DNA of 32,000 nucleotides from Candidatus Heimdallarchaeota archaeon (GTDB lineage Archaea > Asgardarchaeota > Heimdallarchaeia > Heimdallarchaeales > Heimdallarchaeaceae): the NCBI GenBank assembly GCA_019057815.1, contig JAHLWR010000013.1, positions 39,542 to 71,541 on the forward strand, written 5' to 3'. Each line of letters starts with the position of its first letter. Within the stretch, counting starts at the first letter, position 1. Below the pieces are notes generated by a model, which ran no database searches, was not told the origin of the DNA, and saw only the letters and a program-made list of their open reading frames with translations. The translations under genes and the position numbers were made by a program. This document shows, piece after piece, positions 7,953 to 27,863 of the stretch.

Positions 7953-8042
7953 GCTCCGATAGTATAGTCGCAGAATTGAGGACTGTGGTTCTCTTTGAGC
8001 AGACATCCTTAGGCGCCGGTTCAAATCCGGCTCGGGGCACCA
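7953..8042 (+). tRNA. tRNA-His(GUG) with a 16-nt intron at the canonical 37/38 position and an encoded CCA
   Basis: Acceptor GCUCCGA/UCGGGGC (U3-G70 wobble). T arm GCCGG-UUCAAAU-CCGGC. Anticodon stem GAGGA/UCCUU. Loop CU-GUG-G..A with anticodon at 7985-7987. Intron 7989-8004 lies in a bulge-helix-bulge: central helix CUGU/GCAG, bulges GGU and ACA. Discriminator A at 8039 and CCA at 8040-8042. The D-arm GUAUAGU resembles eukaryotic tRNA-His. Confidence 0.85.
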
Positions 8043-8319: not shown

Positions 8320-8364
8320 TTACTGACATCGTTGAGATGTGACTAACTGGGAGAAAGGTTGTTT

Positions 8365-9068: not shown

Positions 9069-9602
9069 TTAAGCAATCTTTTTCTCAATGCTTCGTAAAA
9101 TAGCTTCACCCATGGATAAAAATGCATTAGGAACATTGTCTCCGGTCTTAGCAGAAGTTTCGATAAAACCAATCATACCATTGTCTTTAGCAAATTTTTG
9201 GCCTTCTTCAGTAGAGACATCACGAAGATCCTCAAGATCGATTTTATTACCAGCTAACATAAGCATGATGCGAGGGCTTTCAGAGCGAGCTTCGTTGATC
9301 CAAGTTTTAAGGTTGTCAAAAGATTGACGACGAGTAATATCATAGGTAACTAAGGCACCCAAACTACCTTTAAAGAAAATTTGGCGCATAGAAGCAAAAC
9401 GATCTTGACCAGCAATATCCCAAAGTTGTAAACAAACCTTAGTGTCACCAATATCAGCAAAAAACGAATATGGCTCCATACCTATGGTCATTAGGTATCC
9501 TGACTGAAATTTTCCATGTATAAATCTCTGCACTAGTGATGTTTTTCCTACTGCTCCATCTCCTAGTAGTAGCATTTTGAAAGTATATTTGTAGCTTACC
9601 AT
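9069..9602 (-). CDS. Ras-superfamily small GTPase, Rab-like
   Basis: G1 GDGAVGKTS, G3 WDIAGQDRF, G4 GNKIDL and G5 ETSAKTG. 177 aa. AGGAAG lies 8 nt upstream of the ATG. Confidence 0.9.
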   Translation of the reverse strand: MVSYKYTFKMLLLGDGAVGKTSLVQRFIHGKFQSGYLMTIGMEPYSFFADIGDTKVCLQLWDIAGQDRFASMRQIFFKGSLGALVTYDITRRQSFDNLKTWINEARSESPRIMLMLAGNKIDLEDLRDVSTEEGQKFAKDNGMIGFIETSAKTGDNVPNAFLSMGEAILRSIEKKIA

Positions 9603-9830: not shown

Positions 9831-12800
9831 TTAGATATAATCTCTAATCACTTTACGGAAGTTTATACATGCTGCAAACATTCGAGCAAAGTCTATATCT
9901 GTGTTATAATATCCTTCTCGCACTTCCTTCATCAAATTATTAATGAAATTTCTGACACTTTGTCTCAATTCTAACCTTGTTGTTAGTCCTCCTATTTCCA
10001 TGATTGTTTTGTATGCTGTTATAAGACTATATTTTGCATATAACTTTACATAATCCACATGATCTAATGTATATATCCTATCTATTTCGACTTGTGTAGA
10101 AATTATATCATAGAGTTCTCTGAATATCTTTTCTTCTTCTTTTATGGATATCAAGTTTCCATTTTCATCTTTTTTCACTGTTAATGGAACTGGCATTGCT
10201 TTTCTGTTTTCAATTATGTCTTTAATGACGCTTAAGACTATTTCTTCAATACTTCCGTCAACTATTTCTCCCTCGTTTTTCATTTTTGTTATGTAGTTTT
10301 CAATAAATGCTTCTGTTATCACATTTACTTCTTGATTCTTACTTTTCTTGTTTCTTGTATTTATCATCCATTCAGTATGGAGTTTGTCCCAGATTTTTCT
10401 ATAATTTGCAATAGATGAAGGTAAAGTGAAAATGAAACGTTCAAATTTATATTTCGTATAGTCTACTGGTTTTATTTGTCCGTAATCTGTCATTATTTCA
10501 AAAAGTTCTAAAGCGAATTTCATAATTACAGTCAAAATATCATTTAACCCTTGACTTCTATCATTTTCCGCTACGATACTCCTTGTAATATAGGTTAAAC
10601 TATTAATTCTTACTGTTCTTGACTGTTGAAATACAATTTTTAATACATCTACTAAATCATTTATTGATATTATCTTATTAATTCGATTATTAGCTCTTTG
10701 ATAATTGATTTTATTTATATACATACATCCTTCAATTAATGCTTCTTTTAGTTCTGGCATTGATTGTAATAATATTCTTCCACCGTCAGGACTCTTTAAA
10801 TTAACTAGCTCTAAGCCATATTTAATCTGTAGATTTTTGTTCCACAAATTTTGTAAATCAACTCGATATTCTATACTATTCCTTTTACCTATCAGGGTTT
10901 CTAAAGCGTTTATTAGAGATGAAAGAGATAAGTATAAGGCTTTATTACCCTCACTATCTTCTGTAAATCGTACTGCTAGGAATTTTGTTGCATCTTGTTT
11001 CGGTGTCAAGTTTTTTATTGTGCCATCTTCTTTAATTACATCTTTCCCTACATCCAAATTTTGTTGAATAAGTTTATTGATAGCTTCTATTTTCGACTGA
11101 TCTATAAGACTGTTGGATTGATATTTTAATATATCATTAATATATATTATTGTAGTCCCATCTGCCGATTCACCTATAGAATCTTTGAAACTAAGTTTAT
11201 TTATTGCTGTTATAACATTTGTTAAATCATATTTGTAATCTCCTTGGGGACTCGCTCTGAATGTTACTTCTACGACAAATCCCCTCCCGTTGGAGTTTTG
11301 TATTGTATTTTGTATTGAGAAGACATAACTTACTTTTTCTTGTCTTATGTTTTTATAATAAAGTACCATATTCTTGATTATTTGAACAGCTGAATGTATA
11401 GCAGAACCTACTATTCTGACATTAGTCGTATCTTTGAATCGATTTAAAGTATTACTCTGATCTGAATATGCTTGTGAATATTGTTTTTCCATTGGTTTTG
11501 TTAACATGTCACTTTCTAGCAGTTCAATACTCGGATTTATCACTGTTCTTTCAATTGCTCCCATTAACATTTTATATTTTTGTTCGCTGTTTTCCATTGT
11601 TTTTATATCGTCTCTTATTGATTCGTATTTACTGTTACATATATCCATATACGTTCTGAAATCGTCTATTTTTGTCATTGATGTTAATATTTCCAAATAA
11701 TTGCTAATGTGTGGGGAATAATTTGGATTAGATTTTGGTAACAATGCTGTGTTAAAAATTTCTAATTCAAAATTAAGACACACATCACCTAGAGGCTCTG
11801 TTGTTTCTCCATTCAATAGCTTGTCCTCTAATCCCACTGCTAGTGTTTTAATAATATTTCCTTCGTTTGTGTCTTTAAAGTTCCCGTTACTCTTTTCATA
11901 AAATACTGACGCTATTGGTGGATTTGTTAATAGATCCTCTTCATTTTTGTATTCATTTTTGATCTTATCTTTGAGATCTGTAAAGGTATTTGCTACTAAT
12001 GTAGTTCCATCCTTTTTAATGATGTAGTATCTGTTGTATTTTACTCCGTCTTTGTTAAACTGTGCATGAAAAATGGATGAACTTAACCATATTTCTTTGT
12101 TGTTCGGATAATGTAAATCTACAATGTTTGATTTAGCTACTGACGATGAAAACATTCCTGTATATGCTGAGAGTTTTATTGTATCAGCTACTTCTTCTCC
12201 TGTGCCTGTGTCAGTAAAAGTTATTGTCTTTTTATATTCTATTGTTCCATCTCCTTTTACGATCTTTATTCCTTCAAAGATCTCTATTTCTGCAGTGTGT
12301 TTCATCTGTTCCGCTACTTGTTTATGGTTAAAGTACGATAAACTATCTTTCTCTGATTTTATACTATACACCACTTCTGTTCCATCATCTAGTTTAAAAA
12401 CTATAAACCCATTTTCATCTACTTGTACACTTGGTTCTTTCTGGAATAAAGCTATTATACTTTGTTTCAAAACCCATTTTTTAAGGAGAAGACCTAAATT
12501 AATATTTAATTCATCACTTTTTTCTTCGATTTTTCTCTTAAATTCATCAACTGTAAAACTCTTTGTAGAATCTGGATATATTCCAAACGTTTTTTGGAAA
12601 GATTCTACTATTCTTCTTATTCCTGCTGTTCCTCCTAATGGTATATCAAAAGTGGGAACATAGTCAACACTGTCTATCTTATCCATTACTCCTAATTCTT
12701 CGAAAACCTTTCTTGCCTCCTCAGTCATTCTATCTGTAGTAACGATGTTTGTAGCTTTTTTATTAAACCTTAGATGATCTTGTCTCACCTTGTATTCATG

Positions 12801-15800
12801 GACGATTAAACTGTCTACTTGTAAACATTTGTAGGAAAATACACCTTCATTTTCTTTTATAATGAAGAAATACGTTTTTCCCTCACTTGTAGCGTCTGCT
12901 CCTGTTGGTGATAATCTTGTTTCTGACTGTGATTTGAATAGTTTGTTAAGTATGTTTTCTGTATTTATTTTACTTTCTCCTATTAAATTATTTTTTACAT
13001 CTGTTACTTCTCCCGTCACAGGATTGAGTTCTAGTGACAGAAACGGGTTTCCTATTCCAGCTATCACTTTTCTTTGTCCTTGTTTGATAATATTACGTAT
13101 TTGACTTGTCATTCTCGCTTTATAATTCTCCTTTGCTTGGGGACAGTTCATAATGAATAATGCCCCTATTAAATCGAGAGTGAGTTGTTGGGTTTCTGCC
13201 AAAGCCTTATGACCTATTAAGTAGTTTCGTATTTGTGTTAGTATATACATTCCAAAATCTAGCATAGAGTGCTCAAAGAGTAGTTGATATTGTTCATTAC
13301 CAATAGAATTTCCGTCTGCAAAGACCGCATCATTATCGATTTCTTTTTCCATCTTTATAAATTCTTCAAGTAATTGGTATATTGCTGTATCTTTAATTCC
13401 CTCAGATATTGCTATCAATTCCTCTAATTCATCACCACAGATTTTCTTATTGATTGACCCATCATCATTTAAAGCTACACCTATTGTTGCTTTAGCAAGT
13501 ATTTTCTTAATATTATCTTGGGCATTAATTAGTAACAAAGTCTGGTAAAATCCTGATTCTTGTATAGTATCAGGATCTATTTTTAGATTGATTTCTTCTG
13601 AACCCATTTGAATTTTGAGAAAGGTATCTCCGTTTACCTTTTCCAGTTTCATTAATTTAGTCAATTTTTCAGCGTTATTTTCACCATCTAAAAATTTAAT
13701 AAAATTAGTAGCAAATCTATTCACAGCCTTAGCTGGTTTTAACAGGTCGTCTACGGTAATCTCAAAGTAATCTCGTATTATTCTGACATCTTCATCTGAT
13801 AAATTAGTTATTTCACCAGATTTCACTTTATTTAAAAGATCAATTCCGTCTTGTTCTGTAATAAGGTTGTGGAAATGTGGTCGTAATTGTAACATTTCCA
13901 TTTTAGCTTTGAGTTCTAATTCTTGTGCTATCCGATTTCTATTATCTTCGTCGAATCTAAATTCGTCTAGAGTAGGTTGTCTACCGTTTGTTGTTAGTAA
14001 TAGTTTTTGTACAAGTGATTGTGTAACAGGAGGTTCATAGTGATCTAAATCCTCTAAAGATTCAGCTCCACCATAATAAGCTAAATCATTTAATATGTCG
14101 GCTGCAGGACCTAAATCATACATCCATTCCATCATCGAATGGAACCAATAATTGTGGGCAAAAGCTTGTAAGAATTTGTAAGAGCTGGTTCCTTGAGTTT
14201 TTTGTGTAATGAGAACAATTCTTTGTGAAGACATCCCTTTAGCTTTAAGTAAGAGAGACATAGCACTCCACATGAGTTGTTCTTTCAAACCCATTACAGT
14301 CCCTAAAAGTGTTGTATAGATCGTTTGAGGCCAAAATATTCCCCATTGTAGAAAACTTCCAACAAGTTTTGTACCAAACTCCAATAACTCTCTAGTACCA
14401 AATTTGAAAGTATTACCTAATTCTAAACTACTAAGAGCGTTTTGAGGGCTAAGTTTTTCGATATATTCTAATAACATTCTGTCAGATTGTGACCATGATG
14501 AGGGATTATCAAAATCAATATTTTTACCAACAGCCTCTTTCTTCCAGAACTCCCATTCTTTTGTGTTTTTGATTTTTTTGCTTAAAAGATCTTGAGCTTG
14601 ATGTGAGGGTTCATCGATGTCACTTAAGACCATTAATATGTCCCCAGGAATTTGAGAGATAGCCAAACCTCGAAAGAAATTGTTAGGATCGAAAATAGCG
14701 TCACGAACATCTTGCCATAAAGCTGTAATTGAGAAACGAGCAAGAAACATTTCCATAATTGTCATGAAAGTAGATTCTTTAAGACCTGTGCCTAAATTAA
14801 TTCCAGGGATAACAAAGTTGTCACTCATTCCAAAAAACATTTCATAACTAATTTCATCTTCGGCACCTATCACTTTGTAAATAACAATATCAGCAGATTG
14901 ATTCAAAGAGTCGGGGTTTCGGACATCATTAGGGTTGGTAACACCTAATTTCTTTGTGTTAGGAACATAAACAGTGGAAATATTTGCACCTAGACTATCC
15001 GAGATTACAACACTAAAACCTGTTTTTCTTAGAACTTCAGCAATATATTTGACTTGGGCTGCCTCATTACCTCCAATGGCGACACCTTCAGATTTTGCTA
15101 TTTCGTTAGCAATAGTCTTTAAATAAACCATAAAGAGGTTCTCACCACCAAAATTATAATTTTCGCGGTTATGAGCTCTATAATTTAGATGAAGTAACAT
15201 ATCAGCGTTGGATTGAACATAGGGGTATTCTTCTTTGGAAACTATCCCAGTACAACCTCCAATATGAAATACCCATTCTAGTAAGAGAATAAAACGGAGT
15301 AAGTAATAATATTTTTTCTCTGCCCAATCCGTAAAGTCCCCTTTTAATAATGAACCTAAAGTGCGCATGAAGTCATTAAAGCTTAATTCTCCTGTCAAAA
15401 ACGATTTTAATAAGTTAAAGATTGCTGTGATTTTTTGCCAGAAATTAATGAAAGAAGTCTTAATTCTATTACCCCAACTAATGAGGAAATCTTTAGTTTT
15501 ACTAAATACTACTTTAGCAGAAACAAGAACGTTTCTAAAGAATTGTAAAATGTATTTTCCAGGATTGCTAAAGAACTCTACAATTTTAGCTTTGAGTGTA
15601 TTAAACATTGCACTTAATCCTGAAGCTATCCAGTTTGGTCCTCCTGTCATATCTAAGATGACCATCCCAACGAGCATTATTCCCGCAATAATAAATGTTT
15701 TCTTGACTATGAAGGTTAGAAAACGACCTTGTATGTTACCGTATAACATGAGTCCGCCTGTGAGTAACATTATTGAACCGAGTATAGCATATATGTGGAA

Positions 15801-18800
15801 GTGTTCGTCCGCGTTTTCTATCCATCTATCTAATAATTCTCCGCTCTTAAGAACATCGATAAATTGTTTAAGAGGACAGTAGAAGTTGTATCTGAGATAG
15901 TTGATAAAGTTGTTCCAAGATGATTTAACAAACTGTAGAAAAGCACCTTCCCAATCATAATTAAGAAGATAATCTTCTAACGTTTGTTGAGCATAGAGTA
16001 GACTTTGAGGAGTGACAGTTCTTTCATCTGGAACGACATAATCGTAAGAGAACAGTTTGAGCAAAACTTGTGAAGTGAAAATAAAGTTACCATCATAATG
16101 ATTGTTAAATTCAACACTAAGAGAATTAAGGAAATGAGCAATATACATTCCATTATAAAGCACATGTAATTCTTTAGTAAGAAGGTTAATAGTAATAACT
16201 CTATCTTGTAAGGTGATACGAAATTGTGTAGTATTAAAACCTTCTACGTTGTTATCAGTGATATTAAGTACTAAGTAATCGATTGGACCAGTGTTATAGT
16301 GTTCATCAAAGAGATTCCAATATTCTATGTTAATAACATCATTCAATTCTAAAGTTGTACCAACAGAAGTGATTTCCATTGTATAACTGTTTTCTTGAAC
16401 AGCGAGTAGGTCGTGGTTAATACTAGTGTCTCCAGAGGTTGTTGCAGTGTATAATTTAATATTTTCTAAATCCTGTGTTTGAAGGTTTTTAACTTCTAGA
16501 TTGTTAATAGATTGATAATTGCTTTGTGTTGTTGTAGAACATGGTACCATCTCTTGTAGCTCTACTTTTTGTATTTGGATTTCATGGTATTCATGAGCAG
16601 TATTTTGATCGTAAATATATCCAAAGACAGCATAACCTATACCATCCGTTTCATCATAATCAGCAACACCTATCCAGACGATTTTAACAGTGTGAATAGC
16701 TAAACCATCACAATAAAAATAGGACATGAGATATTTTTTACTAGAGTATGAACGACGGGCAATATCTACAGGAGCATAAGTGAAAGTGTTTGTTCCTCCC
16801 GTGTATTCGTCAAGAGCGAGAAATATTCTTCTTTGTCCTAATTTATCCATAAGATCTATGTGATAATCTGTAGGTTGAGCAACAAGTGAGATAAATTCAT
16901 TGATACCTTCGATAGAAAGGGTGAAGTTGAGAGAGTTGTAAGCATTTAAGTCATTTAACACAAAAACAAACGTGTGGAATCCAGCTGTGTGCCATGTGGT
17001 AGAAATATCATCGCCATTGTATGTGTTTGTTAAATCATAAGGTTTCATAGTAAACTGGAAATTACCATTTGCATCAGCTAACAAAAGTTCATTTCTGAAT
17101 GATGAAGCATTGAAATCGTTAGGTTGACGAATAAGGAAACCATCAATGTAAATTGCTAAGAAACTAGAAAGATTGAGGTTGGAATGTAAAATATACTGCA
17201 AATCGGGAGTGATTTCGGTTAAATGTCTAATTGTTGTGCTTACAACAATCTGAGTATCGTTAGAGTAGAAACCTGAATCTATTTGTCCTAATTCTTCTAT
17301 TGTACCATAATCTGTGATGGAGGAATATCCAAGTGCCATGTCATTGTAAGTGATGTTGTTAAAAATTACATCGCCTGCTAAAGGAACAGCTTTCTCGAAC
17401 CATTCTGTCAAGAAGTAAGACATGGAATAGTTACTATAGATTGGGATATATTCTCCGTTCCACTCTGGAATATCTATATCTCCATTTCTGAAATATTCTC
17501 CTGTTTTATCGATATAAATATCGGGATTAGAGACCGTCCATTCAGGAATAAATGTGAAGTTGTTCGAATCCAATACTGTCTTCATCGAATCTTTGAGTAG
17601 GGTAAAGGATTTGTCAAGAACAATGTTAACTTTGAAGAAGGGTTGATAATCGTTGAAAGAACTATCATTGAAAGTCGTGTGATGGATTCTAAAAATAAAA
17701 GTATGATAACCACCGTAAAGATTGTTTAAAGGTATCTTAATTTCCTTTTCTTCATATTTATTGGCAACATCATAAGAAAATTGATAAGAAACAGGATTAT
17801 CTATGCTAAATTCAACATTAGTATTGATAATTAACGTTCCTATTGATTCTTTTTCTGTTAGTACAGTGAAAGTCATATCGAATGCAAAAACGTCTGCAAA
17901 AGTGAGGTTAAGTCTCTCTTTGAGATTAATGTACCCCAAATCATCTGAAAGAATAGGTTGCCATGTACTATCAGTATTGAGTAATGCACTTGGCGTGTTT
18001 TCAGAAGGATTGATAGTTGGAAGTATAGCATATAGATTAAAGCCTTTTAGTTCACTTGATCCTGCAGAACAGGAGAGAGTATAATGTGTACCATCAACAT
18101 AGAAATCTTTTACTTTTACTACACTATAGAAATTACTTATGTAATCATAAGGATTAGTAACATCTAGTAAGTTTAAGGATTGTTCTGTCCCTACTTGTGT
18201 TGCACTAATGTATGCAATAAGGTTCATAAAATTCAACGAGAAATAATGCCAATCATTGTCATCTTTAATAGGTACAGCATATTCAATATGATGATAACCA
18301 GAATAATTTGTATCGTTTAAATCATAAGGATCGAAATTTGTAGATGTGAAATATAAATTGGCGAGAATTATCTCTAAATTAAGATTCTTCTCGTAATAGT
18401 TATAATCTTCCATATATGAAGCTTGGAGAGGTAAAGTTACTGTAAGTACATCTCCTTCAGCTATCTTATAATAGAATTCCAGACTATTTACTAGTGTAAC
18501 ATCGACACTTTCAACTGAAGGTATATCTATTAGATCCACTGAATATTTGGCATCAGATGGAAGAATATCAGGATTTGATGGGCTTGTATAGAGGAAGTTT
18601 GTTATCGTTTTGACTTTTCCTAAAGCTATTTTATCGAATTCTACTATATTATCGAAGTGGAGAGTGTATTTATGTAATCCTACAATGGAAAAGTCATCTA
18701 AGATGATAATAACAGGATGATTGGTTGTAAAAGCGTTATAATCTATGCAACGATAACCAAGGAATTGATCATCATCTCCATATACAGAAATATTAACAGG

Positions 18801-21800: not shown

Positions 21801-24800
21801 ATCGAAAGATATTACTAATTGTCCAACTGACTGATCGTTATTGGGGTATAATATCTCATACATGTTTTTATGGATTGTAACAAATCCTTGTATACGGTTA
21901 GTAAACGGTGTAATATCGTAATACTGGTTATTAACACCTAAAGATATTGAGTTATTTTCTTCTATATCGTCTGTCATTATATCAATTGCTACAAACGGAT
22001 ATTCTGTTACATTTACGGGGTTGAAATTGATGTATAGTCTTCCTTCATCATAACTAGTATGGTTTACTCTTAAGATACCGTTTTCAAAACTGACATTTGT
22101 GTTAAAGGCTATTACACGTTTATCATCAAAAACATACATACTAAAGTAATATTCTTTAGTAAAAACATTTTCTACCCAACGTTTAGTAGTTGAATATTTA
22201 TCAAAGTCTTCAGCCCATCCAAAGTCTGATGTAGAATACTCATAATCTTCTTCAGCTTCGGAATGACTAGTAATATCTGTTGCTTGTAAGGATAATAATT
22301 GTATTGGAATACGTCTATCAATCATTATTATAACTTCATACAGTCCTTCATATCCTATTATAACGAGAGAATGACTATGGAAATCAAAATCATTATCTAA
22401 GAAAATAATTGAACCTACATATTGTGCGTCGTCAAGATTAAATATTCCATCGATTTCTAATAAGAAAATGTGGAAAGTAAGTCTTTCTGTTACGTTCTCT
22501 CCAACATAATAATTTGCGAGAGCAGTTAAATATAATCGTGTTTCGTTTTTTAGAAACATGTCATATGATGCTATAAAGTTTAGATCTTCAGGTGTTTCTC
22601 TTGTAATTATTGAACTGTTATCATATGAACTACTGCTACCCAAATCTAGATATTTGAGGCTAATAATGTTGGGGAAGATTTCATTAGTATAAATTGCAGA
22701 TTGTGTGATTCTTAAAGCGAATACATCAGAATTATGGCTTACGGGAATCTCATTACTGAGTACAATAAGAGGGGCAATAGGGATATAATAATCTCCACGA
22801 TATAATCCCAACAAGAGTTCAGAATCTTTTCTTCCAAATCTGAACCATATATCAGCATCGATAATACTATCATCAACATATTGAATGACTAAATACTCAC
22901 CTATATAGACATTAATGGTTAGAACATCAGTAGTAATTATTTCAACCTTAAACGCTATGTTGTAGGCGTTATCTAAGAATTCAAAAGTTAGATATCCTAT
23001 ACAATTATAACTAATTGTTGTGTTAATATGAGCGGTCATTAAAAAGTCGTCTACAAGAACCATATCTTTCCAGAATGTTCTTCCTTTTGGTACATAGGTA
23101 AACTGTGAGAAATCAAAGAGGGTTTTTAATCCTTCATTTAGTACATAAGGTATTTCATTAGTTGCTACATTTCCATAAGCATAAGTTGCAAAATCATCAA
23201 TTGTTGCAAAATCAGTACTATAATCAGGGGCTACAAAAGATGTGATAGCATTGAAAGGATGAGGATTATCAATAGGTAAGCTTTTTGTACAAACATATAT
23301 TGCATTAATACCCATTGTGTTCGTAACCGTGTTATTTCCCAGTGAAAGTTCTTTGATTTTTATCCTATCAATATAAAGCTGTTCAATCTCATTGGTATAT
23401 GTAAAAATTGTCTCAAGTTGGTTGGTTCCAGTTATGTCAGATAAAACTGACAATGTATTACCTTCTCTCATTATCCTGAAGACATTGTTATTTATATCAT
23501 TAGAATGTGAAAAACTATCTACAAGAACACGATTGATGAATAATGAGATAGTGACATGTCCTTGTTCTTCTCCTGTGAATCTAAGTTCAAAGAGATCAAG
23601 ATACTGCAAATGATCTTCTAAAATAATTGAAATTATTCCATAATTTTTATCTAACAAGTAAGTAAGTCTTGTATCTAAATAAAAATCTGTTTCAAAGGTA
23701 TAATCATATGCATAGACGTTTCCGTACCAATCTGTGCCATCTTGGAAAGGACGTTCAAAGTTAGTAGTAAGGTAAGTTGCATTTTGTAGGATGGTTTGAG
23801 AAGTATAGTAATTTATTCCTTTTATTTCCCAGTTTGAAAGATCAGAAAAGTGGTCATTTAAGATTACATATTCACTTTCCCACGGCGCATCGTATTGAGT
23901 GACAAGAGCATCTTTTAGGGTTATATCTCCTAACATCATTAATAGTGGTTCTGGGGACGCAAAATCAAAAGTAGTAATAATGTCAATGTTTTCAATTCTA
24001 TAAGGTTCGATGTTTAAACTTAGATGAGGTACTAAAATGTCTACACTGTTAATATTACTATAGAAAGTGAGTGTATTCCCTTCTTGTATCAAACGTAAGG
24101 AACTATATTGCAAAACTGTTTTTTGAATAGTAATAATGTCTGTTCCACTAGTAGAGTGTAAGCTTATTATTATTGAACTTCCAGTAAATTCTAGATGTAA
24201 ATAACTATTCATATTATTAAGCGAAATTGTCAGACTTCCAATCTTATCGATTGATTCAATATTTACACGGAAATCAATCATAAAATCATAATCGGAAGAA
24301 ACATTTCTAGAAAACGTTATCGCAATATTTTGTGTAAGAGTGTTTAAAGGAGTTATTTTCATGTAATTGTTCTCATTTGTTATCCCTATATCAGATACAT
24401 CACAGCCATCATATGATGTTAACCAGTTTCCTGCAATATATGAATTGTACATATTTTCTTCTAATACTGTATTTACAGCTGATTCCAATGCATTATATCC
24501 CGCACTATAATAATAACTGTCAACAAATAATGTATCTAGATAATAATTTGGATAATAATGATCATAAAATATCTCTTGTGATATAGCGATTGTATCAATC
24601 AAGAAATTTGTACTGAAAGTATGTTCCAGAATAGTTGTACTTCTATCCAAGTCAGTTATCTGTATTTCATTTTCGTTTTTCGTAATTCGTATTTTCTTGA
24701 AAATAGATGTTGTTATTGTTTCAGTATATAGGGTATCCTCATTTATAACGATTAGAAATTCTGTGGCATTGTCTGTATCAGATAAATCTCGAAATATTAT

Positions 24801-27800
24801 AGTGATTTTCTCATCTGTATTTCCAAACGAGATTTGTTGGATACCTATTGAAGTAGGATCTTCACTTCCTAAAATTATAGCTATAAAATCAATAATAATA
24901 TTTGAATCTAATTGTTGTTCATGACTTAAATATGTTCCATGGTATCCAGCTCCACTTTCTGATATCCAAAACAGATCTTTCCTCTTCAGTACATCATCTG
25001 CAAATTGAGTAGCGAGCACGTTATTTGATAAATCTACAACATTATTAGCATTAGCAGTTACATTCCAAGCGTCAAGTGTATTGAATGTTTCACTAATTAA
25101 TCTGTGGCGGAGCGTTGTATATCCAGCTTTAAATTCACATGATGCTGAGCCTAAAATAACGCGGAATATATCATATGTTCCAGCTCTGATATTGATATTC
25201 TTAATTTGTTGAAGTAGAGCAGGGGTATCTTTTGTAATTGTAAAAACAGTTGTAGAATCTACTTGGAAAGTTACAGTAGTACTTTCCTTCTTTATTGTAA
25301 AATAGTGACTATTGCCATCTGCAAGAGCAATTTGTTCCTCATGACCGTCTATTAAAATATAATAGGTATCAAATTTTCTTCCAACAACCAAGAAAGGCTC
25401 ATTGAAATTGTTTGTTAGTTCTATTTGAACAAAATCTTCGGCGGATATTGTTGTAAAATCAACATGTATTTGGAATGTGATATCTCCTGCTATGTTGACT
25501 TCTTTATTTAATACCATTCCATATTGTTCAGTTCCCATGTTTTCAATCAGTTTTATCTCTTGTAGTGTGCCATCGAGTTCATTGTATTCTACTTGTGTAA
25601 GATTCTCATCACCAAATCTTTCAGCTGTGAAGATATCAGATATTATTCTTGTTTGCCATAATGATTGCCATTGCTCTGTCTGTACATCCAGTTTTGGATA
25701 AAATATTTCATTTGTTGAATCAGTATAATCATAAGGTGATTCATATCCTGAAGGTTCGTCACCATTATATACTAACATATCGTTATCGATGTAAGATGCG
25801 GTTCCTCTTCTATAATAGTCCCATGCAGGTCTGCTTTGTCCAAAAGGTGTAGCTCCTGCAAAACCTAACTCATCGATATATATAGGCCAATTGAAAGTTT
25901 CTACTATTTCTATCGAGAGTATAGATGTAAACCTAATTGTTTCAGGGTTGATGGGACAGATTACTCTCTCAAATCCTTTACCATGCTCAATAACTGCTTT
26001 TGCAACAAGTGTTCTAGCTATTCCGTATCTATCTATATCATCTATATAGAAAGCAAGTGTAACATCCTCTGGTCCTTGATTCATCGCCCGTACGTGTAAT
26101 CTATCAGCTGCGTTAGGCTCTCTGCTTTCTACGATTAATGTAGTGGTCTTGACGATACTATTGTATCCCATAAAACCTACGTATCTTATTCCAAAATATT
26201 CATCATGGATAGAGATATATTCAGAATTTGATATGTAAACAGTAATACCTCCATTATCATAAATAATCTCTACATTGTATTCTTCGTTCAAGAGGATGGT
26301 TTCTTTTCTTTCATAAATAGAAGTATAACCACTCGGATATAGTCTCACCAATCTTATTTTGTCTTCTGTGGTAGGATCTTTAATAAATTGTAAAGCATAA
26401 CCACTATCGAAGATATTATCATAGTTAAATAATATTGAGAAGATTGATTCTGTTGTGGGATCATTTTGAACAAAGATGAAAGAAGTTGAAAGTCTGTAAG
26501 AGTCGTTCATTTCCAAAGGTAAATAGGCTTTTGTTTTGAAATCAGTATGTGTAGTATTAAGCATTAATCCCTCTTCTGATGTGCATTGTGTATAGTTTTC
26601 ATCATATACCCAGTTATCAAGATCGCAATCTGTGAAGTCTATATCATAAATGGGGATACTGTTTTCAAGCAAATAGGATATATATCCTCCATCTTTGTTG
26701 TTATCGACAAGTAGAACGCGGTTATTAACAACTCTTATTCCACTTTGATCTGAAGTGACATCAGCTAATGTAGTTATTTTTGTGTCATAAAGAGATTTTG
26801 AATATTCTTCAGCATTAATTATTTCTCCTGGGGAATATCGATAATCATTTATTGTTTCATCAATATACAAATAATTTAGTATTAATCCCGTATCTATTCC
26901 TGCTGTATTGTTGTACCAAGTTATTGCTAGTTCCAAACGGATATAATGCCCAGCCCACCACGATAAATCAATAGTATCCATTGTTGGATAGTAGTTTAAA
27001 TATTCAAATTCATCTACAATTTTGATGTTTTTATAGGGGTTGTCAGCATCGTAAATTGTCATCTCAATGTCATAGTAAACATATGGAGCATTCAATAGAG
27101 ACGAAAACAGATAGTTTAGTGTAGGTTTATATACGGAAGGTATTACCATATGAAAATCGAAATAGCGTTTGCCATAAGGAGCAACAGAAGGTACGTTAAA
27201 GATTCTTGCATTATGCTCTATTCCTTCTGCTGTTACTATACCATTTTCGCAAATGTAATCTTTTGCAGAAGGATATAGATCTTCATTAAAAGCTTTATCA
27301 TTTGTTAATAGGTCGTATTTGTGAAATTGGGGAGTATATATACTTACTTCTTTAATGTTTAAATTATAACCATTCTCGTCATTATCAATGATTTTGATGG
27401 TAAGATATTGAGTATTTTTGAAGATATAATAATCTATTCTAGCACCCCTTAGATGAGTGAAACTTTCTTTTGTGAAAAATATTTTGGAAGTATTGGTATC
27501 AGATATAATCAATTTATCTATTGGATCAGCACCATTTGTAGGTGTTTCTACGGTAAGTAGCAGCTCGCTTTCTCCATTCCAACTGCTAATATCAACAACT
27601 TTTGTAGCATAACCGTTATCTGGTATATGTAGGTTATCATACCATGTTTCAAGGTTATCGCCTTTCCAACCCAAAATAGATTCGTGAAAATATGAGTCTT
27701 TCACAAAATAATATCCATTATCAAATGTATTTGGAGTTGTAATTAATATTCCTGATACATTTGAAAACGCAACCAAAAAAATTAACACTGCTGCTAACGT

Positions 27801-27863
27801 TACTGTTACTAATCTTTTTGCTTTATAATTATAAGTGTCCATAATATTTTCCTTTCTTTTCAT
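9831..27863 (-). CDS. Giant (6010 aa) membrane-spanning surface protein of unknown function
   Basis: Single uninterrupted 18-kb ORF. N-terminal basic segment plus a hydrophobic anchor. About 4000 aa of Y/N/T/D/I-rich beta-type sequence with recurring jelly-roll/LamG-like module endings. A hydrophobic cluster at about aa 4023-4208, then about 1800 aa of K/E/L-rich sequence. Its start overlaps the upstream stop (ATGA). Confidence 0.85.
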   Translation of the reverse strand: MKRKENIMDTYNYKAKRLVTVTLAAVLIFLVAFSNVSGILITTPNTFDNGYYFVKDSYFHESILGWKGDNLETWYDNLHIPDNGYATKVVDISSWNGESELLLTVETPTNGADPIDKLIISDTNTSKIFFTKESFTHLRGARIDYYIFKNTQYLTIKIIDNDENGYNLNIKEVSIYTPQFHKYDLLTNDKAFNEDLYPSAKDYICENGIVTAEGIEHNARIFNVPSVAPYGKRYFDFHMVIPSVYKPTLNYLFSSLLNAPYVYYDIEMTIYDADNPYKNIKIVDEFEYLNYYPTMDTIDLSWWAGHYIRLELAITWYNNTAGIDTGLILNYLYIDETINDYRYSPGEIINAEEYSKSLYDTKITTLADVTSDQSGIRVVNNRVLLVDNNKDGGYISYLLENSIPIYDIDFTDCDLDNWVYDENYTQCTSEEGLMLNTTHTDFKTKAYLPLEMNDSYRLSTSFIFVQNDPTTESIFSILFNYDNIFDSGYALQFIKDPTTEDKIRLVRLYPSGYTSIYERKETILLNEEYNVEIIYDNGGITVYISNSEYISIHDEYFGIRYVGFMGYNSIVKTTTLIVESREPNAADRLHVRAMNQGPEDVTLAFYIDDIDRYGIARTLVAKAVIEHGKGFERVICPINPETIRFTSILSIEIVETFNWPIYIDELGFAGATPFGQSRPAWDYYRRGTASYIDNDMLVYNGDEPSGYESPYDYTDSTNEIFYPKLDVQTEQWQSLWQTRIISDIFTAERFGDENLTQVEYNELDGTLQEIKLIENMGTEQYGMVLNKEVNIAGDITFQIHVDFTTISAEDFVQIELTNNFNEPFLVVGRKFDTYYILIDGHEEQIALADGNSHYFTIKKESTTVTFQVDSTTVFTITKDTPALLQQIKNINIRAGTYDIFRVILGSASCEFKAGYTTLRHRLISETFNTLDAWNVTANANNVVDLSNNVLATQFADDVLKRKDLFWISESGAGYHGTYLSHEQQLDSNIIIDFIAIILGSEDPTSIGIQQISFGNTDEKITIIFRDLSDTDNATEFLIVINEDTLYTETITTSIFKKIRITKNENEIQITDLDRSTTILEHTFSTNFLIDTIAISQEIFYDHYYPNYYLDTLFVDSYYYSAGYNALESAVNTVLEENMYNSYIAGNWLTSYDGCDVSDIGITNENNYMKITPLNTLTQNIAITFSRNVSSDYDFMIDFRVNIESIDKIGSLTISLNNMNSYLHLEFTGSSIIISLHSTSGTDIITIQKTVLQYSSLRLIQEGNTLTFYSNINSVDILVPHLSLNIEPYRIENIDIITTFDFASPEPLLMMLGDITLKDALVTQYDAPWESEYVILNDHFSDLSNWEIKGINYYTSQTILQNATYLTTNFERPFQDGTDWYGNVYAYDYTFETDFYLDTRLTYLLDKNYGIISIILEDHLQYLDLFELRFTGEEQGHVTISLFINRVLVDSFSHSNDINNNVFRIMREGNTLSVLSDITGTNQLETIFTYTNEIEQLYIDRIKIKELSLGNNTVTNTMGINAIYVCTKSLPIDNPHPFNAITSFVAPDYSTDFATIDDFATYAYGNVATNEIPYVLNEGLKTLFDFSQFTYVPKGRTFWKDMVLVDDFLMTAHINTTISYNCIGYLTFEFLDNAYNIAFKVEIITTDVLTINVYIGEYLVIQYVDDSIIDADIWFRFGRKDSELLLGLYRGDYYIPIAPLIVLSNEIPVSHNSDVFALRITQSAIYTNEIFPNIISLKYLDLGSSSSYDNSSIITRETPEDLNFIASYDMFLKNETRLYLTALANYYVGENVTERLTFHIFLLEIDGIFNLDDAQYVGSIIFLDNDFDFHSHSLVIIGYEGLYEVIIMIDRRIPIQLLSLQATDITSHSEAEEDYEYSTSDFGWAEDFDKYSTTKRWVENVFTKEYYFSMYVFDDKRVIAFNTNVSFENGILRVNHTSYDEGRLYINFNPVNVTEYPFVAIDIMTDDIEENNSISLGVNNQYYDITPFTNRIQGFVTIHKNMYEILYPNNDQSVGQLVISFDKPTTFTIRKIEVYKIAKYNYLHTEESNENSYADIGYANNIDTAIVFLIGSAITPTREQQELNAVSFFKAKYPDVPIYYYYSEDANFPNWMKNTLRTSSKKYILVVFDELPTKLLEKYYYYDDYGRPFEKYLLQEWIERGNNLFWAGSEPFGKGIDDQGIVNPIDGDIVRKYLGEVINNTVVPDVIPTDIETNITTEGEMVGLQPYNPSWLVNYTAMPRYGGKLLAYYHNEEGVEYNITIHQGLELTNPLMFNNYWISGFVDSPISFINTIDSSVLLQIFMQFYLEPPSFDNVFGALLLHGPITLQKTFSFSKEYEQISLSASNYINVIIDNETIDFNIYDEKCLADYGVNNSINGFILQLNETFTAIYGISFIEKNTDMQREVYYFDSPEENIDTYLQMIEGGFSYSDAYNMLRGAGAAFLDTHPYENTIFELEMSVQPSTWIEGDIRTDVAGMMLELPTENIANSFYDGLFIGFKVVEDIDYTYPLYLVIMQYQGASDTYSLLFEQKIVNLGNSIDPGPNSVDNMNLQPLKLTIVKTITPSGQVRYDIYAKCYRVFGISEWDEVRAMQQANDGEYGMATRWFATSTSVTVQGYQASNIGFYSNRTNFFYNSLVIYPTSPEQTGDYISLDSGHTYMSIDGLWVDGQISTNYIDMKDVNYLVTLSNLFQNVWDTQTTRRVYIGVMNDLGHTCALAWDLGGFGYDILGEFAHVYFDDQASKNDEIFKIRIEIKENSDVVFSIYSEDDMGQSIVEEIFYHNNFMKPHLNGGTKVKLFIQTENTMVYIEEIRNGKFYTSPLTYSHGRGLQGAGEISYWLKGETEYSLKMFNSSISNSFIMGNYTESLGTFTTTFIANDTTNAVFTTTHNDNELFNIEIRDNILYFDNQSLDYQIYSGHIYTLTFNFNSSYQVLFIDDGTKEEKWEYDGTTINIDIGYTYHVSMSTTTGTLYLLEVSIGVINSDFSYKDLEGWSYNVDDNGLFTFSEDYFARKGILQLIVNPLYGPVNISVYGDDDQFLGYRCIDYNAFTTNHPVIIILDDFSIVGLHKYTLHFDNIVEFDKIALGKVKTITNFLYTSPSNPDILPSDAKYSVDLIDIPSVESVDVTLVNSLEFYYKIAEGDVLTVTLPLQASYMEDYNYYEKNLNLEIILANLYFTSTNFDPYDLNDTNYSGYHHIEYAVPIKDDNDWHYFSLNFMNLIAYISATQVGTEQSLNLLDVTNPYDYISNFYSVVKVKDFYVDGTHYTLSCSAGSSELKGFNLYAILPTINPSENTPSALLNTDSTWQPILSDDLGYINLKERLNLTFADVFAFDMTFTVLTEKESIGTLIINTNVEFSIDNPVSYQFSYDVANKYEEKEIKIPLNNLYGGYHTFIFRIHHTTFNDSSFNDYQPFFKVNIVLDKSFTLLKDSMKTVLDSNNFTFIPEWTVSNPDIYIDKTGEYFRNGDIDIPEWNGEYIPIYSNYSMSYFLTEWFEKAVPLAGDVIFNNITYNDMALGYSSITDYGTIEELGQIDSGFYSNDTQIVVSTTIRHLTEITPDLQYILHSNLNLSSFLAIYIDGFLIRQPNDFNASSFRNELLLADANGNFQFTMKPYDLTNTYNGDDISTTWHTAGFHTFVFVLNDLNAYNSLNFTLSIEGINEFISLVAQPTDYHIDLMDKLGQRRIFLALDEYTGGTNTFTYAPVDIARRSYSSKKYLMSYFYCDGLAIHTVKIVWIGVADYDETDGIGYAVFGYIYDQNTAHEYHEIQIQKVELQEMVPCSTTTQSNYQSINNLEVKNLQTQDLENIKLYTATTSGDTSINHDLLAVQENSYTMEITSVGTTLELNDVINIEYWNLFDEHYNTGPIDYLVLNITDNNVEGFNTTQFRITLQDRVITINLLTKELHVLYNGMYIAHFLNSLSVEFNNHYDGNFIFTSQVLLKLFSYDYVVPDERTVTPQSLLYAQQTLEDYLLNYDWEGAFLQFVKSSWNNFINYLRYNFYCPLKQFIDVLKSGELLDRWIENADEHFHIYAILGSIMLLTGGLMLYGNIQGRFLTFIVKKTFIIAGIMLVGMVILDMTGGPNWIASGLSAMFNTLKAKIVEFFSNPGKYILQFFRNVLVSAKVVFSKTKDFLISWGNRIKTSFINFWQKITAIFNLLKSFLTGELSFNDFMRTLGSLLKGDFTDWAEKKYYYLLRFILLLEWVFHIGGCTGIVSKEEYPYVQSNADMLLHLNYRAHNRENYNFGGENLFMVYLKTIANEIAKSEGVAIGGNEAAQVKYIAEVLRKTGFSVVISDSLGANISTVYVPNTKKLGVTNPNDVRNPDSLNQSADIVIYKVIGAEDEISYEMFFGMSDNFVIPGINLGTGLKESTFMTIMEMFLARFSITALWQDVRDAIFDPNNFFRGLAISQIPGDILMVLSDIDEPSHQAQDLLSKKIKNTKEWEFWKKEAVGKNIDFDNPSSWSQSDRMLLEYIEKLSPQNALSSLELGNTFKFGTRELLEFGTKLVGSFLQWGIFWPQTIYTTLLGTVMGLKEQLMWSAMSLLLKAKGMSSQRIVLITQKTQGTSSYKFLQAFAHNYWFHSMMEWMYDLGPAADILNDLAYYGGAESLEDLDHYEPPVTQSLVQKLLLTTNGRQPTLDEFRFDEDNRNRIAQELELKAKMEMLQLRPHFHNLITEQDGIDLLNKVKSGEITNLSDEDVRIIRDYFEITVDDLLKPAKAVNRFATNFIKFLDGENNAEKLTKLMKLEKVNGDTFLKIQMGSEEINLKIDPDTIQESGFYQTLLLINAQDNIKKILAKATIGVALNDDGSINKKICGDELEELIAISEGIKDTAIYQLLEEFIKMEKEIDNDAVFADGNSIGNEQYQLLFEHSMLDFGMYILTQIRNYLIGHKALAETQQLTLDLIGALFIMNCPQAKENYKARMTSQIRNIIKQGQRKVIAGIGNPFLSLELNPVTGEVTDVKNNLIGESKINTENILNKLFKSQSETRLSPTGADATSEGKTYFFIIKENEGVFSYKCLQVDSLIVHEYKVRQDHLRFNKKATNIVTTDRMTEEARKVFEELGVMDKIDSVDYVPTFDIPLGGTAGIRRIVESFQKTFGIYPDSTKSFTVDEFKRKIEEKSDELNINLGLLLKKWVLKQSIIALFQKEPSVQVDENGFIVFKLDDGTEVVYSIKSEKDSLSYFNHKQVAEQMKHTAEIEIFEGIKIVKGDGTIEYKKTITFTDTGTGEEVADTIKLSAYTGMFSSSVAKSNIVDLHYPNNKEIWLSSSIFHAQFNKDGVKYNRYYIIKKDGTTLVANTFTDLKDKIKNEYKNEEDLLTNPPIASVFYEKSNGNFKDTNEGNIIKTLAVGLEDKLLNGETTEPLGDVCLNFELEIFNTALLPKSNPNYSPHISNYLEILTSMTKIDDFRTYMDICNSKYESIRDDIKTMENSEQKYKMLMGAIERTVINPSIELLESDMLTKPMEKQYSQAYSDQSNTLNRFKDTTNVRIVGSAIHSAVQIIKNMVLYYKNIRQEKVSYVFSIQNTIQNSNGRGFVVEVTFRASPQGDYKYDLTNVITAINKLSFKDSIGESADGTTIIYINDILKYQSNSLIDQSKIEAINKLIQQNLDVGKDVIKEDGTIKNLTPKQDATKFLAVRFTEDSEGNKALYLSLSSLINALETLIGKRNSIEYRVDLQNLWNKNLQIKYGLELVNLKSPDGGRILLQSMPELKEALIEGCMYINKINYQRANNRINKIISINDLVDVLKIVFQQSRTVRINSLTYITRSIVAENDRSQGLNDILTVIMKFALELFEIMTDYGQIKPVDYTKYKFERFIFTLPSSIANYRKIWDKLHTEWMINTRNKKSKNQEVNVITEAFIENYITKMKNEGEIVDGSIEEIVLSVIKDIIENRKAMPVPLTVKKDENGNLISIKEEEKIFRELYDIISTQVEIDRIYTLDHVDYVKLYAKYSLITAYKTIMEIGGLTTRLELRQSVRNFINNLMKEVREGYYNTDIDFARMFAACINFRKVIRDYI
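15240..15797 (-). other. Transmembrane-helix cluster of the giant protein (about aa 4023-4208)
   Basis: HIYAILGSIMLLTGGLMLYG, TFIIAGIMLVGMVILDM and YYYLLRFILLLEWVFHIGGCTGIV, separated by K-rich amphipathic segments. Helix number and topology are not determinable by eye. Confidence 0.5.
27741..27812 (-). other. N-terminal signal peptide or signal anchor of the giant protein
   Basis: KAKR followed by LVTVTLAAVLIFLVAFSNVSGILI. Confidence 0.6.

Follow-up and report, generated by a model that had tools for sequence, protein, structure and literature searches.

A giant Heimdallarchaeial surface protein with a conserved ectodomain and a polymorphic, sequon-poor C-terminal part

Polymorphic toxin systems such as CdiA-CT/CdiI, Rhs-CT/RhsI and MafB are accompanied by orphan cassettes. 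Among archaea, VARTIG of Thermococcales is a large surface protein whose C-terminal part is hypervariable by recombination and whose downstream genes vary; its authors, too, draw the analogy with polymorphic toxin systems and with recognition of self and non-self (Makarova et al. 2021, PMC8416519). The aloposon of Ca. Heimdallarchaeum, as described in the passages of Wu et al. 2022 (PMC8813620) that deal with it, is a mobile element with tandem giants of 3,000-6,000 aa, Otus and Ephialtes, which are followed by a tRNA site and preceded by a block of four consecutive genes, one of them for a MinD/ParA-like ATPase. The same passages report a further region with truncated giant-gene fragments in these genomes and assign the giants no function (PMC8813620). 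Here we describe a giant gene in a 32,000-nt stretch of Candidatus Heimdallarchaeota archaeon DNA (assembly GCA_019057815.1, contig JAHLWR010000013.1, positions 39,542 to 71,541; hereafter the window). The open reading frame (ORF) lies at 9831..27863 on the minus strand and runs uninterrupted from an ATG start through 6,010 codons.

The giant falls into four parts: a probable Sec-type signal peptide, a conserved ectodomain of ~4,000 aa, a membrane hairpin with a conserved membrane-proximal module of ~560 aa, and a polymorphic C-terminal cassette of ~1,370 aa that comprises a linker and a C-module (Table 1). What is new here is the apparently recombining, sequon-poor tail, the partner genes linked to it, its orphan copies and the operon of two giants to which it belongs. 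A homologue of 6,210 aa (P0002) is colinear with the window protein, at 44% identity over aa 19-4602 and 27% over aa 4889-5502, and is present in two assemblies, a metagenome-assembled genome (MAG) at NCBI and an independent Logan assembly. A contig labelled 'Ca. Heimdallarchaeota archaeon 8H_bin2' (L002) holds a single ORF that covers aa 2297-5881 and crosses the membrane junction. The ratio of nonsynonymous to synonymous divergence (dN/dS) was 0.04-0.95 in each 100-codon interval tested between aa 4020 and 5980, and 0.18-0.27 across the ectodomain. Because of the colinear homologue, the read-through of the junction in L002 and these dN/dS values, the giant ORF is real and not an assembly artefact, which upholds the single uninterrupted ORF called in an earlier note made from the letters of the window.

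Relatives of the giant are few. A HMMER search with aa 4021-5220 as query, run against 1.84 billion cluster representatives, gave six matches, of which one is spurious and five are true relatives; a word-index homology search returned only P0001 (and nothing for the giant encoded upstream), scans of genomes, metagenomes and viruses added only L002, L008 and L009, and tblastn against phage records found no match. The relatives carry the labels 'Candidatus Heimdallarchaeaceae', 'Candidatus Kariarchaeaceae', 'Heimdallarchaeota' and 'subsurface metagenome', and the neighbours of the giant in the window (two Ras-family GTPases, a Memo-like protein and a 90-nt tRNA-His) fit an Asgard archaeon. Known families were likewise silent: Pfam gave only sub-threshold noise on overlapping 1,000-aa chunks of the window protein, P0002, P0003 and P0005; NCBIfam, PHROGs and PADLOC gave nothing significant on 1,000-aa chunks of the window protein and the upstream ORF; and the PDB was matched neither by the sequence of the window protein nor by profiles of the membrane-proximal module and the C-module. 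On the evidence of these searches, the giant is a member of an orphan family of HEIMDALLARCHAEIA, restricted to Heimdallarchaeia. The earlier note had recognised no catalytic or nucleotide-binding motif, and no such family turned up in Pfam, the PDB or the other libraries.

The divergence of the giant is mosaic. Nucleotide identity to L002 is 87-100% from aa 2300 to ~aa 4600, with 900 nt of perfect identity within the ectodomain at aa 3351-3650, and 65-86% thereafter (65-83% beyond ~aa 4640); around the breakpoint it falls from 91-96% (aa 4501-4600) to 85%, 78% and 66%. Across the breakpoint dN rises from 0.03 to 0.18, with a roughly ten-fold jump at aa 4608 when 100-codon intervals are compared. 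Relative to L002, dS and dN by the Nei-Gojobori method are 0.14 and 0.026 in the ectodomain (94% amino-acid identity, dN/dS 0.18) and 0.28 and 0.032 in the transmembrane (TM) and membrane-proximal module, as against 0.51 and 0.27 in the linker and 0.57 and 0.26 in the C-module. Comparison with P0001 gave the same pattern. Estimates for the C-module span 0.57-0.70 in dS and 0.26-0.28 in dN. The tail thus exceeds the N-terminal part ~ten-fold in dN and two- to four-fold in dS, and since dS differs as well as dN, this is not merely relaxed constraint. The four tail alleles (window, L002, P0001 and L008) are equidistant, being mutually 59-65% identical, while the N-terminal parts, where available (window, L002 and P0001), are at least 92% identical. 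The most conserved stretch of the whole protein is the hairpin together with aa 4076-4640. Conservation of the exposed ectodomain but not of the tail inverts what is usually expected. Either divergent tail alleles would be maintained and exchanged, or the N-terminal part would have been homogenised recently; from its divergence pattern, the tail appears to be swapped by recombination.

The gene that follows the tail also differs between alleles: it encodes a Ras GTPase in the window, an orphan of 566-570 aa in L001 and L008 (73% mutually identical), and a leucine-rich repeat (LRR) protein after P0002. No downstream synteny between alleles was found by tblastx. Sequence of the 570-aa type stands beside tail sequence in three contigs (L001, L008 and L010), and an LRR gene stands beside a C-module in another three (L003, L006 and L011), its products having no signal peptide. 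In the window, the 228-nt spacer between the giant and the Ras GTPase gene contains no T-run terminator.

The tail also exists in stand-alone copies. P0005 (1,203 aa, L006) lies mid-contig in the MAG of P0002 and is followed by an LRR gene; it is 5'-truncated, as homology to P0002 runs upstream of its Met to an in-frame stop and, before that, continues in another frame. P0009 (1,027 aa, L011) directly follows rpoB, with a convergent LRR gene nearby, and its homology likewise continues upstream of its Met. Both have remained intact over more than 1,000 codons at 32% GC while diverging to 24-42% identity with the tail of the window protein, so these orphan ORFs are under selection. A dN/dS of 0.50 between two near-identical orphan copies was set aside, the counts behind it (25 differences) being too few to inform. 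A displaced fragment is found on L010, a low-coverage contig of 744 nt, where region 1-420 carries the last (3') part of a gene of the 570-aa type and, behind it, an ORF of 94 aa (P0006). In P0006 the conserved junction motif TLLGAVMGLKEQL, with which helix 4501-4525 ends in the giant, is fused directly to aa 4813-4905 of the tail, as if the fragment were a displaced cassette remnant or a deletion variant.

The tail carries a second signature, the avoidance of N-glycosylation sequons. Observed and expected numbers of N-x-S/T are 3 and 12.5 in the window (aa 4641-6010), 0 and 9.5 in L002, 3 and 11.3 in P0001, 2 and 11.9 in P0002, 0 and 8.6 in P0005, and 1 and 7.1 in P0004; pooled, the six tails have 9 sequons against ~61 expected. 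The reversed motif S/T-x-N occurs 48 times in the same tails against ~61 expected, N-x-A/G and Q-x-S/T are not significantly depleted, and D-x-S/T is at or above expectation. It appears from these counts that Asp has replaced Asn in the same structural context, which could also account for the D-G-T hairpins described below. The upstream giants are depleted as well (5 against 14.0 in the window, 20 against 38.8 in the homologue), whereas cytoplasmic controls from the window and related loci are neutral both pooled (23 against 16.2) and individually, and ordinary surface proteins are enriched 2-3 fold (36 against 12.9 for L006 4730-7708, 48 against 21.2 for L003 32159-36328, and 6 against 2.3). 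Sequon statistics therefore split the proteins of these genomes into three classes, neutral, enriched and depleted, and the avoidance signature may be a cheap localisation clue in archaea. Asn deamidation was rejected as a cause of the loss, since it depends on residue n+1 and not n+2. The simplest reading of the counts would be selection against unwanted N-glycosylation; such selection implies that the tail meets the oligosaccharyltransferase, i.e. that it would be exported. Export conflicts with the cytoplasm-like composition of the tail and with its signal-less orphan copies. If the tail is cytoplasmic instead, the sequon signature itself becomes an unexplained phenomenon.

Within the C-module, alignments of the family (A2 and A4) share the motifs VPTYxxPxGGxxxIRRVIETFQK, DENGF, KLSAYT, SSAIFH, RYYIIKKDG, TDYGRIKPV and MEIG. 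D-G-[ST] occurs seven times in the C-terminal part against 0.8 expected, a number reached in 0/500 shuffles, and several copies are conserved in homologues and lie at predicted beta-hairpin turns, in agreement with the beta-turn motifs seen by the earlier note. AlphaFold2 run on six C-module sequences gave a mostly helical model with a predicted local distance difference test score (pLDDT) of 52, in which only a beta subdomain was usable; there, strands flank LDDGTEVV, KGDGTIEY and KKDGTTLV, and D1285/G1286 and G1161 are invariant in A2 (numbered from its first sequence, which starts at aa 4001). The C-terminal part had been described as largely helical; the low-confidence model is mostly so, but the beta-rich subdomain at ~aa 5155-5325 means that it is not purely helical. 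A Foldseek search of the PDB with the C-module model returned no match at E<=0.001.

The half of the giant that precedes the hydrophobic cluster is of a different kind. Its N-terminus looks like a cleavable Sec signal peptide, with a K/R-rich n-region, a hydrophobic core and a putative V-S-G|I cleavage site, and P0002 has the same layout with V-S-A|V; the signal anchor proposed earlier should probably give way to this. Over aa 40-4020, K, E, Y, N and T make up 3.4, 6.2, 7.5, 8.0 and 8.5% and the net charge is about -20 per 250 aa, while over aa 4211-6010 K, E and Y stand at 8.3, 7.7 and 4.1% and the charge is about neutral; across the cluster, K+E thus rises from 9.6% to 16.0% and Tyr falls from 7.5% to 4.1%. 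We also scored localisation by log-odds, trained on cytoplasmic versus surface proteins from the window and related loci. The score is negative in all twenty 200-aa segments before aa 4001 and positive from aa 4001 on, dropping to ~0 at aa 5201-5600. The two halves are compositionally opposite, with the flip at the hydrophobic cluster where it had been placed. The ectodomain was also said to be dense in sequons, which does not hold, as 46 N-x-S/T against 47.7 expected from composition is 1.0-fold in genomes where ordinary surface proteins are enriched 2-3 fold. Sequon positions are conserved, however, since of 47 sequon columns the window protein shares 27 with P0002 (45% identical), where 4.8 would be expected. 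The signal-peptide-like N-terminus, the surface-type composition, the sequon positions kept across 45% identity and the hydrophobic cluster that divides two sequence types support a very large, exported ectodomain, which by its conserved sites is probably N-glycosylated. The repeating 150-250-aa jelly-roll units suggested for it could not be substantiated from sequence: self-BLASTP of the window protein finds no internal repeats, a profile self-scan with hhalign gives only two marginal pairs (330-456 against 2898-3020, probability 31%, and 1254-1295 against 1460-1503, probability 21%), and neither LamG, Laminin_G_3 nor a ConA-like family matches in Pfam at E<=1 for the window protein or at E<=0.5 for P0002.

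The giant is the second of two. The gene upstream is listed as a 1,306-aa ORF but is really open to nt 32000, so it exceeds 1,379 aa. Its product has surface-type composition, recurring D-x-x-x-P boundaries typical of immunoglobulin (Ig)-like arrays, and a C-terminal TM anchor (aa 1270-1288 of the listed ORF) with a short basic tail. Next to P0002, and abutting it as here, is a homologue of at least 2,812 aa, 22% identical over 974 aa (E 8e-24); contigs L003 and L004 end inside this upstream gene. Start and stop codons of the two giants overlap in both loci. Given the ATGA overlap and the homologous upstream gene beside P0002, we conclude from gene order that the giant is the second gene of a conserved two-giant surface operon, predicted to be translationally coupled.

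How the two halves are placed relative to the membrane depends on the cluster between them. The window protein has hydrophobic segments at aa 23-41 (N-terminal), 4022-4042, 4052-4074, 4185-4209 and 4501-4525, which bears out the hydrophobic helices earlier put at about aa 4023-4208, with a possible further one. Only at 4022-4042 and 4052-4074 does the Kyte-Doolittle score rise above 1.7 in the window protein as well as in P0002, the two full-length homologues. The loop between them has three K+R and no D+E, with an acidic flank before the pair and a neutral one after it. Two strong helices with a basic loop are a classic hairpin, which taken alone would leave both halves on one side of the membrane. 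Whether helix 4185-4209 spans the membrane would, as far as sequence can tell, decide the topology; the parity of spans after the ectodomain hangs on this third helix and a fourth, which are predicted to be borderline and scale-dependent. The charges flanking helix 4185-4209 oppose the out-to-in orientation required of it. Helix 4501-4525 may be a fourth TM helix or a re-entrant loop. A Wimley-White octanol scan was discarded as a TM predictor, having too many false positives in an aromatic-rich protein, and AlphaFold2 on three sequences of the TM and membrane-proximal module gave an unusable model (pLDDT 34).

Several further observations concern this region. Over window positions 15393-15932 (aa 3977-4156) there are non-significant matches to phage tail tape-measure families in PHROGs (phrog_1272, E 0.008; phrog_58, E 0.05); lying over the hairpin and the K-rich amphipathic helices, they are probably compositional, and fit the theme of a membrane-inserting module. 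Only 5/24 Cys of the giant are conserved in P0002. One of the five is Cys4204 (window 15252-15254), in an invariant I-G-G-C-[TS]-G followed by an invariant VQSN...LLHLN...H (aa 4200-4231). This region is a possible processing or active site, a candidate with no family support. Two specific versions were rejected: Hedgehog/intein-like G-G-C autoprocessing at aa 4202-4204, as there is no Hint family match and the residues after the Cys are unlike Hint blocks, and a papain- or transglutaminase-like Cys-His site, as the Cys is at the wrong end of the helix and family support is missing here too. Asn4294 (window 14982-14984) lies in a sequon, G-[AD]-N-[IV]-S-T-V-Y-V-P, common to the window protein, L002, P0001 and P0002 (41% identical); the conserved membrane-proximal region around it has few sequons. 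If Asn4294 is glycosylated, the membrane-proximal module is outside the cell.

Taken together, the breakpoint and the dS mosaic, the equidistant alleles, the allele-specific downstream genes, the truncated orphans, the junction-headed fragment and the sequon avoidance lead us to favour, tentatively and short of an even chance, a polymorphic, exported C-terminal cassette system analogous to contact-dependent inhibition (CDI)/Rhs systems or to VARTIG. In such a system, the conserved N-terminal 4,640 aa and the upstream Ig-like giant would form a long surface structure that contacts other cells, and the C-terminal cassette would be its variable 'business end', exposed outside the cell. Exposure of this kind would explain the purged sequons, with Asp for Asn in the same motif context, and the cassette would owe its cytoplasm-type chemistry to acting on, or in, the cytoplasm of another cell. 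The cassette would be bound or neutralised by the adjacent cytoplasmic partner, be it the LRR protein (three loci), the 570-aa orphan (three contigs) or the Ras-like GTPase (window). Alleles would be exchanged by recombination near the conserved junction (~aa 4520-4650), with the 5'-truncated orphan copies as a source. LRR proteins are generic tight binders, mammalian ribonuclease inhibitor being the textbook case; an LRR partner fits an exported cassette and a cytoplasmic tail alike.

The exported cassette has a good deal to contend with. All sequence after aa 4021 is cytoplasm-like in composition, including the loop that any hairpin model puts outside, and the basic flank that follows helix 4501-4525 argues for a C-terminal part in the cytoplasm. 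The orphan copies are signal-less and intact over deep divergence, so that their simpler reading is as cytoplasmic proteins; the model must take them either as cassettes or as proteins exported by another route. One family member, P0003 from Kariarchaeaceae, lacks the sequon depletion, and the LRR gene of L011 is convergent and not co-transcribed. The cassette remains alignable between alleles, i.e. it has diverged and has not been replaced by unrelated domains, and it is about ten times the size of a typical polymorphic toxin tip. No toxin, protease or other known domain was detected in the giant, His and Cys are nowhere invariant in the family alignment of the C-module, and neither structure model was confident (pLDDT 52 for the C-module, 34 for the membrane module). 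Our inferences rest on ~8 sequences, several of them fragments.

Little is known of cell contact, recognition and conflict in Asgard archaea, which are central to syntrophy-based models of eukaryogenesis, and Heimdallarchaeia are among the closest archaeal relatives of eukaryotes. The locus devotes more than 22 kb to two surface giants and has the hallmarks of a polymorphic contact system, yet no known domain. In its full form, the exported-cassette model would say that Heimdallarchaeia carry a contact-dependent polymorphic effector/allorecognition system of two giants, in which a 1,370-aa sequon-free cassette passes a membrane-inserting hairpin and a conserved processing module on its way out of the cell, is swapped by recombination among alleles and silent orphans, and is matched by cytoplasmic LRR-type binders. 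The complete chain is on the unlikely side; if true, it would be an archaeal analogue of CDI/Rhs with entirely new domains.

The locus can also be read, as in the earlier note, as an outside-in linker. The membrane would then be crossed an odd number of times, by the hairpin plus helix 4185-4209 or 4501-4525, and the last 1,400-1,800 aa would be cytoplasmic and work with LRR proteins or small GTPases (a ROCO-like theme), the same module being a free cytoplasmic protein in some genomes. The cytoplasm-like composition from aa 4001 (the stretch with a score near zero excepted), the intact stand-alone C-modules P0005 and P0009, the cytoplasmic partners (LRR without signal peptide in 3 loci, the Ras/Roc GTPase of the window and the 570-aa orphan) and the basic flank after helix 4501-4525 all suit this arrangement. 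So does the Kyte-Doolittle score of 1.64 for helix 4185-4209 in the window, but the same helix is below threshold in P0002 (1.27) and its flanks are contrary to the positive-inside rule. A two-helix hairpin would place both halves on one side, the very outcome that its proposer had said would refute the idea. The linker leaves unexplained a strong, direction-specific avoidance of N-x-S/T that is common to the extracellular operon partner and not seen in cytoplasmic controls, and it makes the supposed signalling domain the least constrained and most recombined part of the protein (dN ten times that of the ectodomain), out of the ordinary for signalling in the cytoplasm; searches of the giant turned up no domain with a signalling, cytoskeletal or nucleotide-binding role. 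We consider the linker doubtful, if still the chief rival of the exported cassette. Of the original proposal of a glycosylated ectodomain coupled to a cytoplasmic domain, the large exported ectodomain stands, and the cytoplasmic C-terminal part and the outside-in coupling are neither shown nor refuted.

A purely structural giant, a surface coat or adhesin with no effector and no cassette switching, would have both halves outside, held by the hairpin, with the sequon-poor tail packed against the sequon-poor upstream giant and its fast evolution due to exposure to viruses or grazers or to weak constraint. That nothing else conserved in both homologues is as strongly hydrophobic as the two-helix hairpin, that tail and upstream giant have the sequon-poor signature in common, that the operon would be translationally coupled and that no enzymatic motif was found are all consistent with this. 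We nevertheless regard it as improbable, because the K/E-rich composition of the tail is unlike all other surface proteins examined, because the dS heterogeneity points to allele exchange beyond relaxed constraint, and because the recurrent linkage to cytoplasmic LRR or orphan partners and the signal-less copies would go unexplained.

A chimeric mis-assembly, named by the earlier note as grounds for abandoning the ORF, or a decaying pseudogene read as one ORF is effectively refuted already and its residual probability is negligible: an 18-kb ORF at 32% GC cannot remain open by chance, P0002 is colinear in two assemblies, L002 reads through as one ORF over aa 2297-5881, and dN/dS is below 1 throughout. 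Nothing was found in favour of an artefact here; some related contigs, namely L002, L009 and L008, do carry artefacts. The 3' end of L002 (10833-10877) translates as EEHTSELQSRGLI, which we take to be a reading of the Illumina adapter, hence untrimmed adapter and not gene. L009 (1,372 nt) is a palindromic chimeric assembly, with C-module matches on both strands arranged about its centre, and in L008 a frameshift or sequencing error at 2105-2221 splits the C-module into ORFs of 686 aa and 399 aa.

The features of the locus are collected in Table 1. In the rest of the window, abutting genes on the plus strand (88-3402 and 3403-5769) encode proteins of 1,104 aa and 788 aa with multiple winged-helix/AlkZ-like/Lhr-WH domains, and are followed by genes for the Memo-like protein (5747-6709) and a Ras-family GTPase (6779-7294). 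The tRNA-His probably carries an archaeal intron. Just downstream of it, an island of 50% GC (8150-8350) stands out from the 32% GC region; at 8218-8339 on the minus strand it contains a full-length, sub-threshold match to 5S rRNA (18.8 bits against a gathering score of 38) with a conserved loop-E/helix IV-V sequence and a poorly paired helix I. This may be a divergent 5S rRNA gene or remnant, and the 93-aa Arg-rich ORF listed at the island is probably spurious.

Table 1. Features of the giant and its neighbours, in window coordinates (WW, Wimley-White).
Feature	Coordinates	Strand	Remarks
Whole giant ORF	9831..27863	-	6,010 aa + stop codon; colinear with P0002; L002 is one ORF over aa 2297-5881
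aa 1-38, probable cleavable Sec signal peptide	27750..27863	-	MKRK...; hydrophobic core 18-34; V-S-G|I; Kyte-Doolittle 2.46 at aa 23-41
aa 39-4021, ectodomain	15801..27749	-	acidic, Y/N/T/D-rich, conserved; conserved N-x-S/T positions; no known domain
aa 4022-4075, membrane hairpin, two strongly hydrophobic helices and short basic loop GRFLTFIVKKT	15639..15800	-	Kyte-Doolittle 1.77 and 2.20 (P0002: 2.51 and 2.25)
aa 4076-4184, K-rich amphipathic helical region	15312..15638	-	K+R 15, D+E 7
aa 4185-4209, borderline hydrophobic helix ending in invariant I-G-G-C-[TS]-G	15237..15311	-	Kyte-Doolittle 1.64 (window), 1.27 (P0002); WW-octanol sum -8.7 / -12.0
aa 4210-4500, most conserved soluble module, alpha/beta-looking	14364..15236	-	84-100% identity to P0001 per 50-aa interval; dN/dS 0.05-0.38; ~45% identity to P0002
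aa 4501-4525, near-invariant aromatic helix F-x-Q-W-G-I-F-W-P-Q-T-x-Y-T-T-x-L-G-T-V-x-G-L	14289..14363	-	Kyte-Doolittle ~1.0; WW-octanol -9.3 / -10.1
aa 4526-4640, end of conserved block	13944..14288	-	conserved/variable breakpoint ~aa 4610-4650
aa 4641-4880, variable helical linker	13224..13943	-	58-59% aa identity to L002 and P0001; dN/dS 0.52-0.64
aa 4881-6010, polymorphic C-module, family-defining, sequon-poor	9834..13223	-	conserved motifs in alignments A2 and A4; also as 5'-truncated orphan copies
aa 5155-5325, beta-rich subdomain with D-G-T motifs at hairpin turns	11889..12401	-	AlphaFold model residues 295-465, pLDDT 65-85
Upstream partner gene, large surface protein	27860..32000	-	open to window end; stop overlaps start of giant (ATGA)
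Ras/Roc-family small GTPase, candidate partner gene	9069..9602	-	Pfam Ras 1.1e-50, Roc 6.7e-30; co-directional, 228 nt downstream of giant
tRNA-His(GTG)	7953..8042	+	90 nt by ARAGORN, longer than usual; Rfam tRNA model covers 7953-8039; 1.8 kb past stop of giant

As to its genomic context, the two giants could be cargo of an Otus/Ephialtes-type aloposon integrated beside the tRNA-His, a possibility that we rate at nearly an even chance and that is compatible with any of the readings above. The likeness is by description: as in the passages of Wu et al. 2022 on the element, there are tandem co-directional giant genes (6,010 aa here, with an upstream gene of more than 1,379 aa whose homologue has at least 2,812 aa), a Heimdall-group host (relatives labelled Heimdallarchaeaceae, Kariarchaeaceae or Heimdallarchaeota) and, arguably, a tRNA gene 1.8 kb downstream and truncated copies elsewhere in the genome; flanks are also non-syntenic between close relatives. 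Against it, no tRNA-derived attachment repeat, including one of the tRNA-His 3' half, is seen elsewhere in the window (beyond which the far end of any element, and any upstream four-gene block, would lie), there is no GC-content anomaly in the window, two ordinary genes and the possible 5S rRNA intervene between the tRNA-His and the giants, viral contigs and phage records gave no match, and k-mers of the window are absent from the supplementary mobilome FASTA of that paper (PMC8813620). Topology, a polymorphic tail and a sequon signature are not mentioned in those passages of PMC8813620.

Among surface proteins, the giant recalls S-layer-type glycoproteins in its probable signal peptide, its acidic Thr/Asn/Tyr-rich ectodomain and its conserved N-x-S/T sites. 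It differs from them in that its sequons are 1.0-fold, as against 2-3 fold in neighbouring surface proteins, and in that its anchor lies within the chain, with 1,940 residues still to come, and it has neither PGF-CTERM nor a single C-terminal anchor; the giant matched none of the S-layer, PKD, CARDB and Ig families. With VARTIG it has in common an archaeal locus, a large surface protein, a recombining C-terminal part and varying downstream genes. Unlike the variable part of VARTIG, which is an Ig domain in a large Ig-repeat protein of a family confined to Thermococcales, that of the giant is a K/E-rich orphan module that comes after a membrane anchor, and Pfam detected no Ig-type family in it.

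The parallels with polymorphic toxin systems are a long conserved stalk and a variable C-terminal part with a breakpoint between them, a downstream gene that is specific to the allele, and 5'-truncated orphans (P0005 in L006 and P0009 in L011), as well as the L010 fragment that keeps the junction motif. Unlike in those systems, no toxin or pre-toxin domain was detected with Pfam, NCBIfam, PADLOC, PHROG or the PDB, and of secretion or trafficking domains (type V, VI and VII secretion systems [T5SS, T6SS, T7SS], PT-VENN, PT-HINT) none was detected, only the putative Sec-type signal peptide. The variable part is ~1,370 aa long and homologous between alleles, it is preceded by a membrane hairpin and a 560-aa conserved module in a single-membrane archaeal host, and the partners are LRR proteins, the 570-aa orphan or a Ras GTPase, not small immunity proteins. 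The locus lacks the domains by which either polymorphic toxin systems or VARTIG are recognised; it resembles them by logic and not by homology. If the exported-cassette model is right, it would provide a first handle on cell-cell conflict and recognition in Heimdallarchaeia and a functional hypothesis for the 'aloposon' giants.

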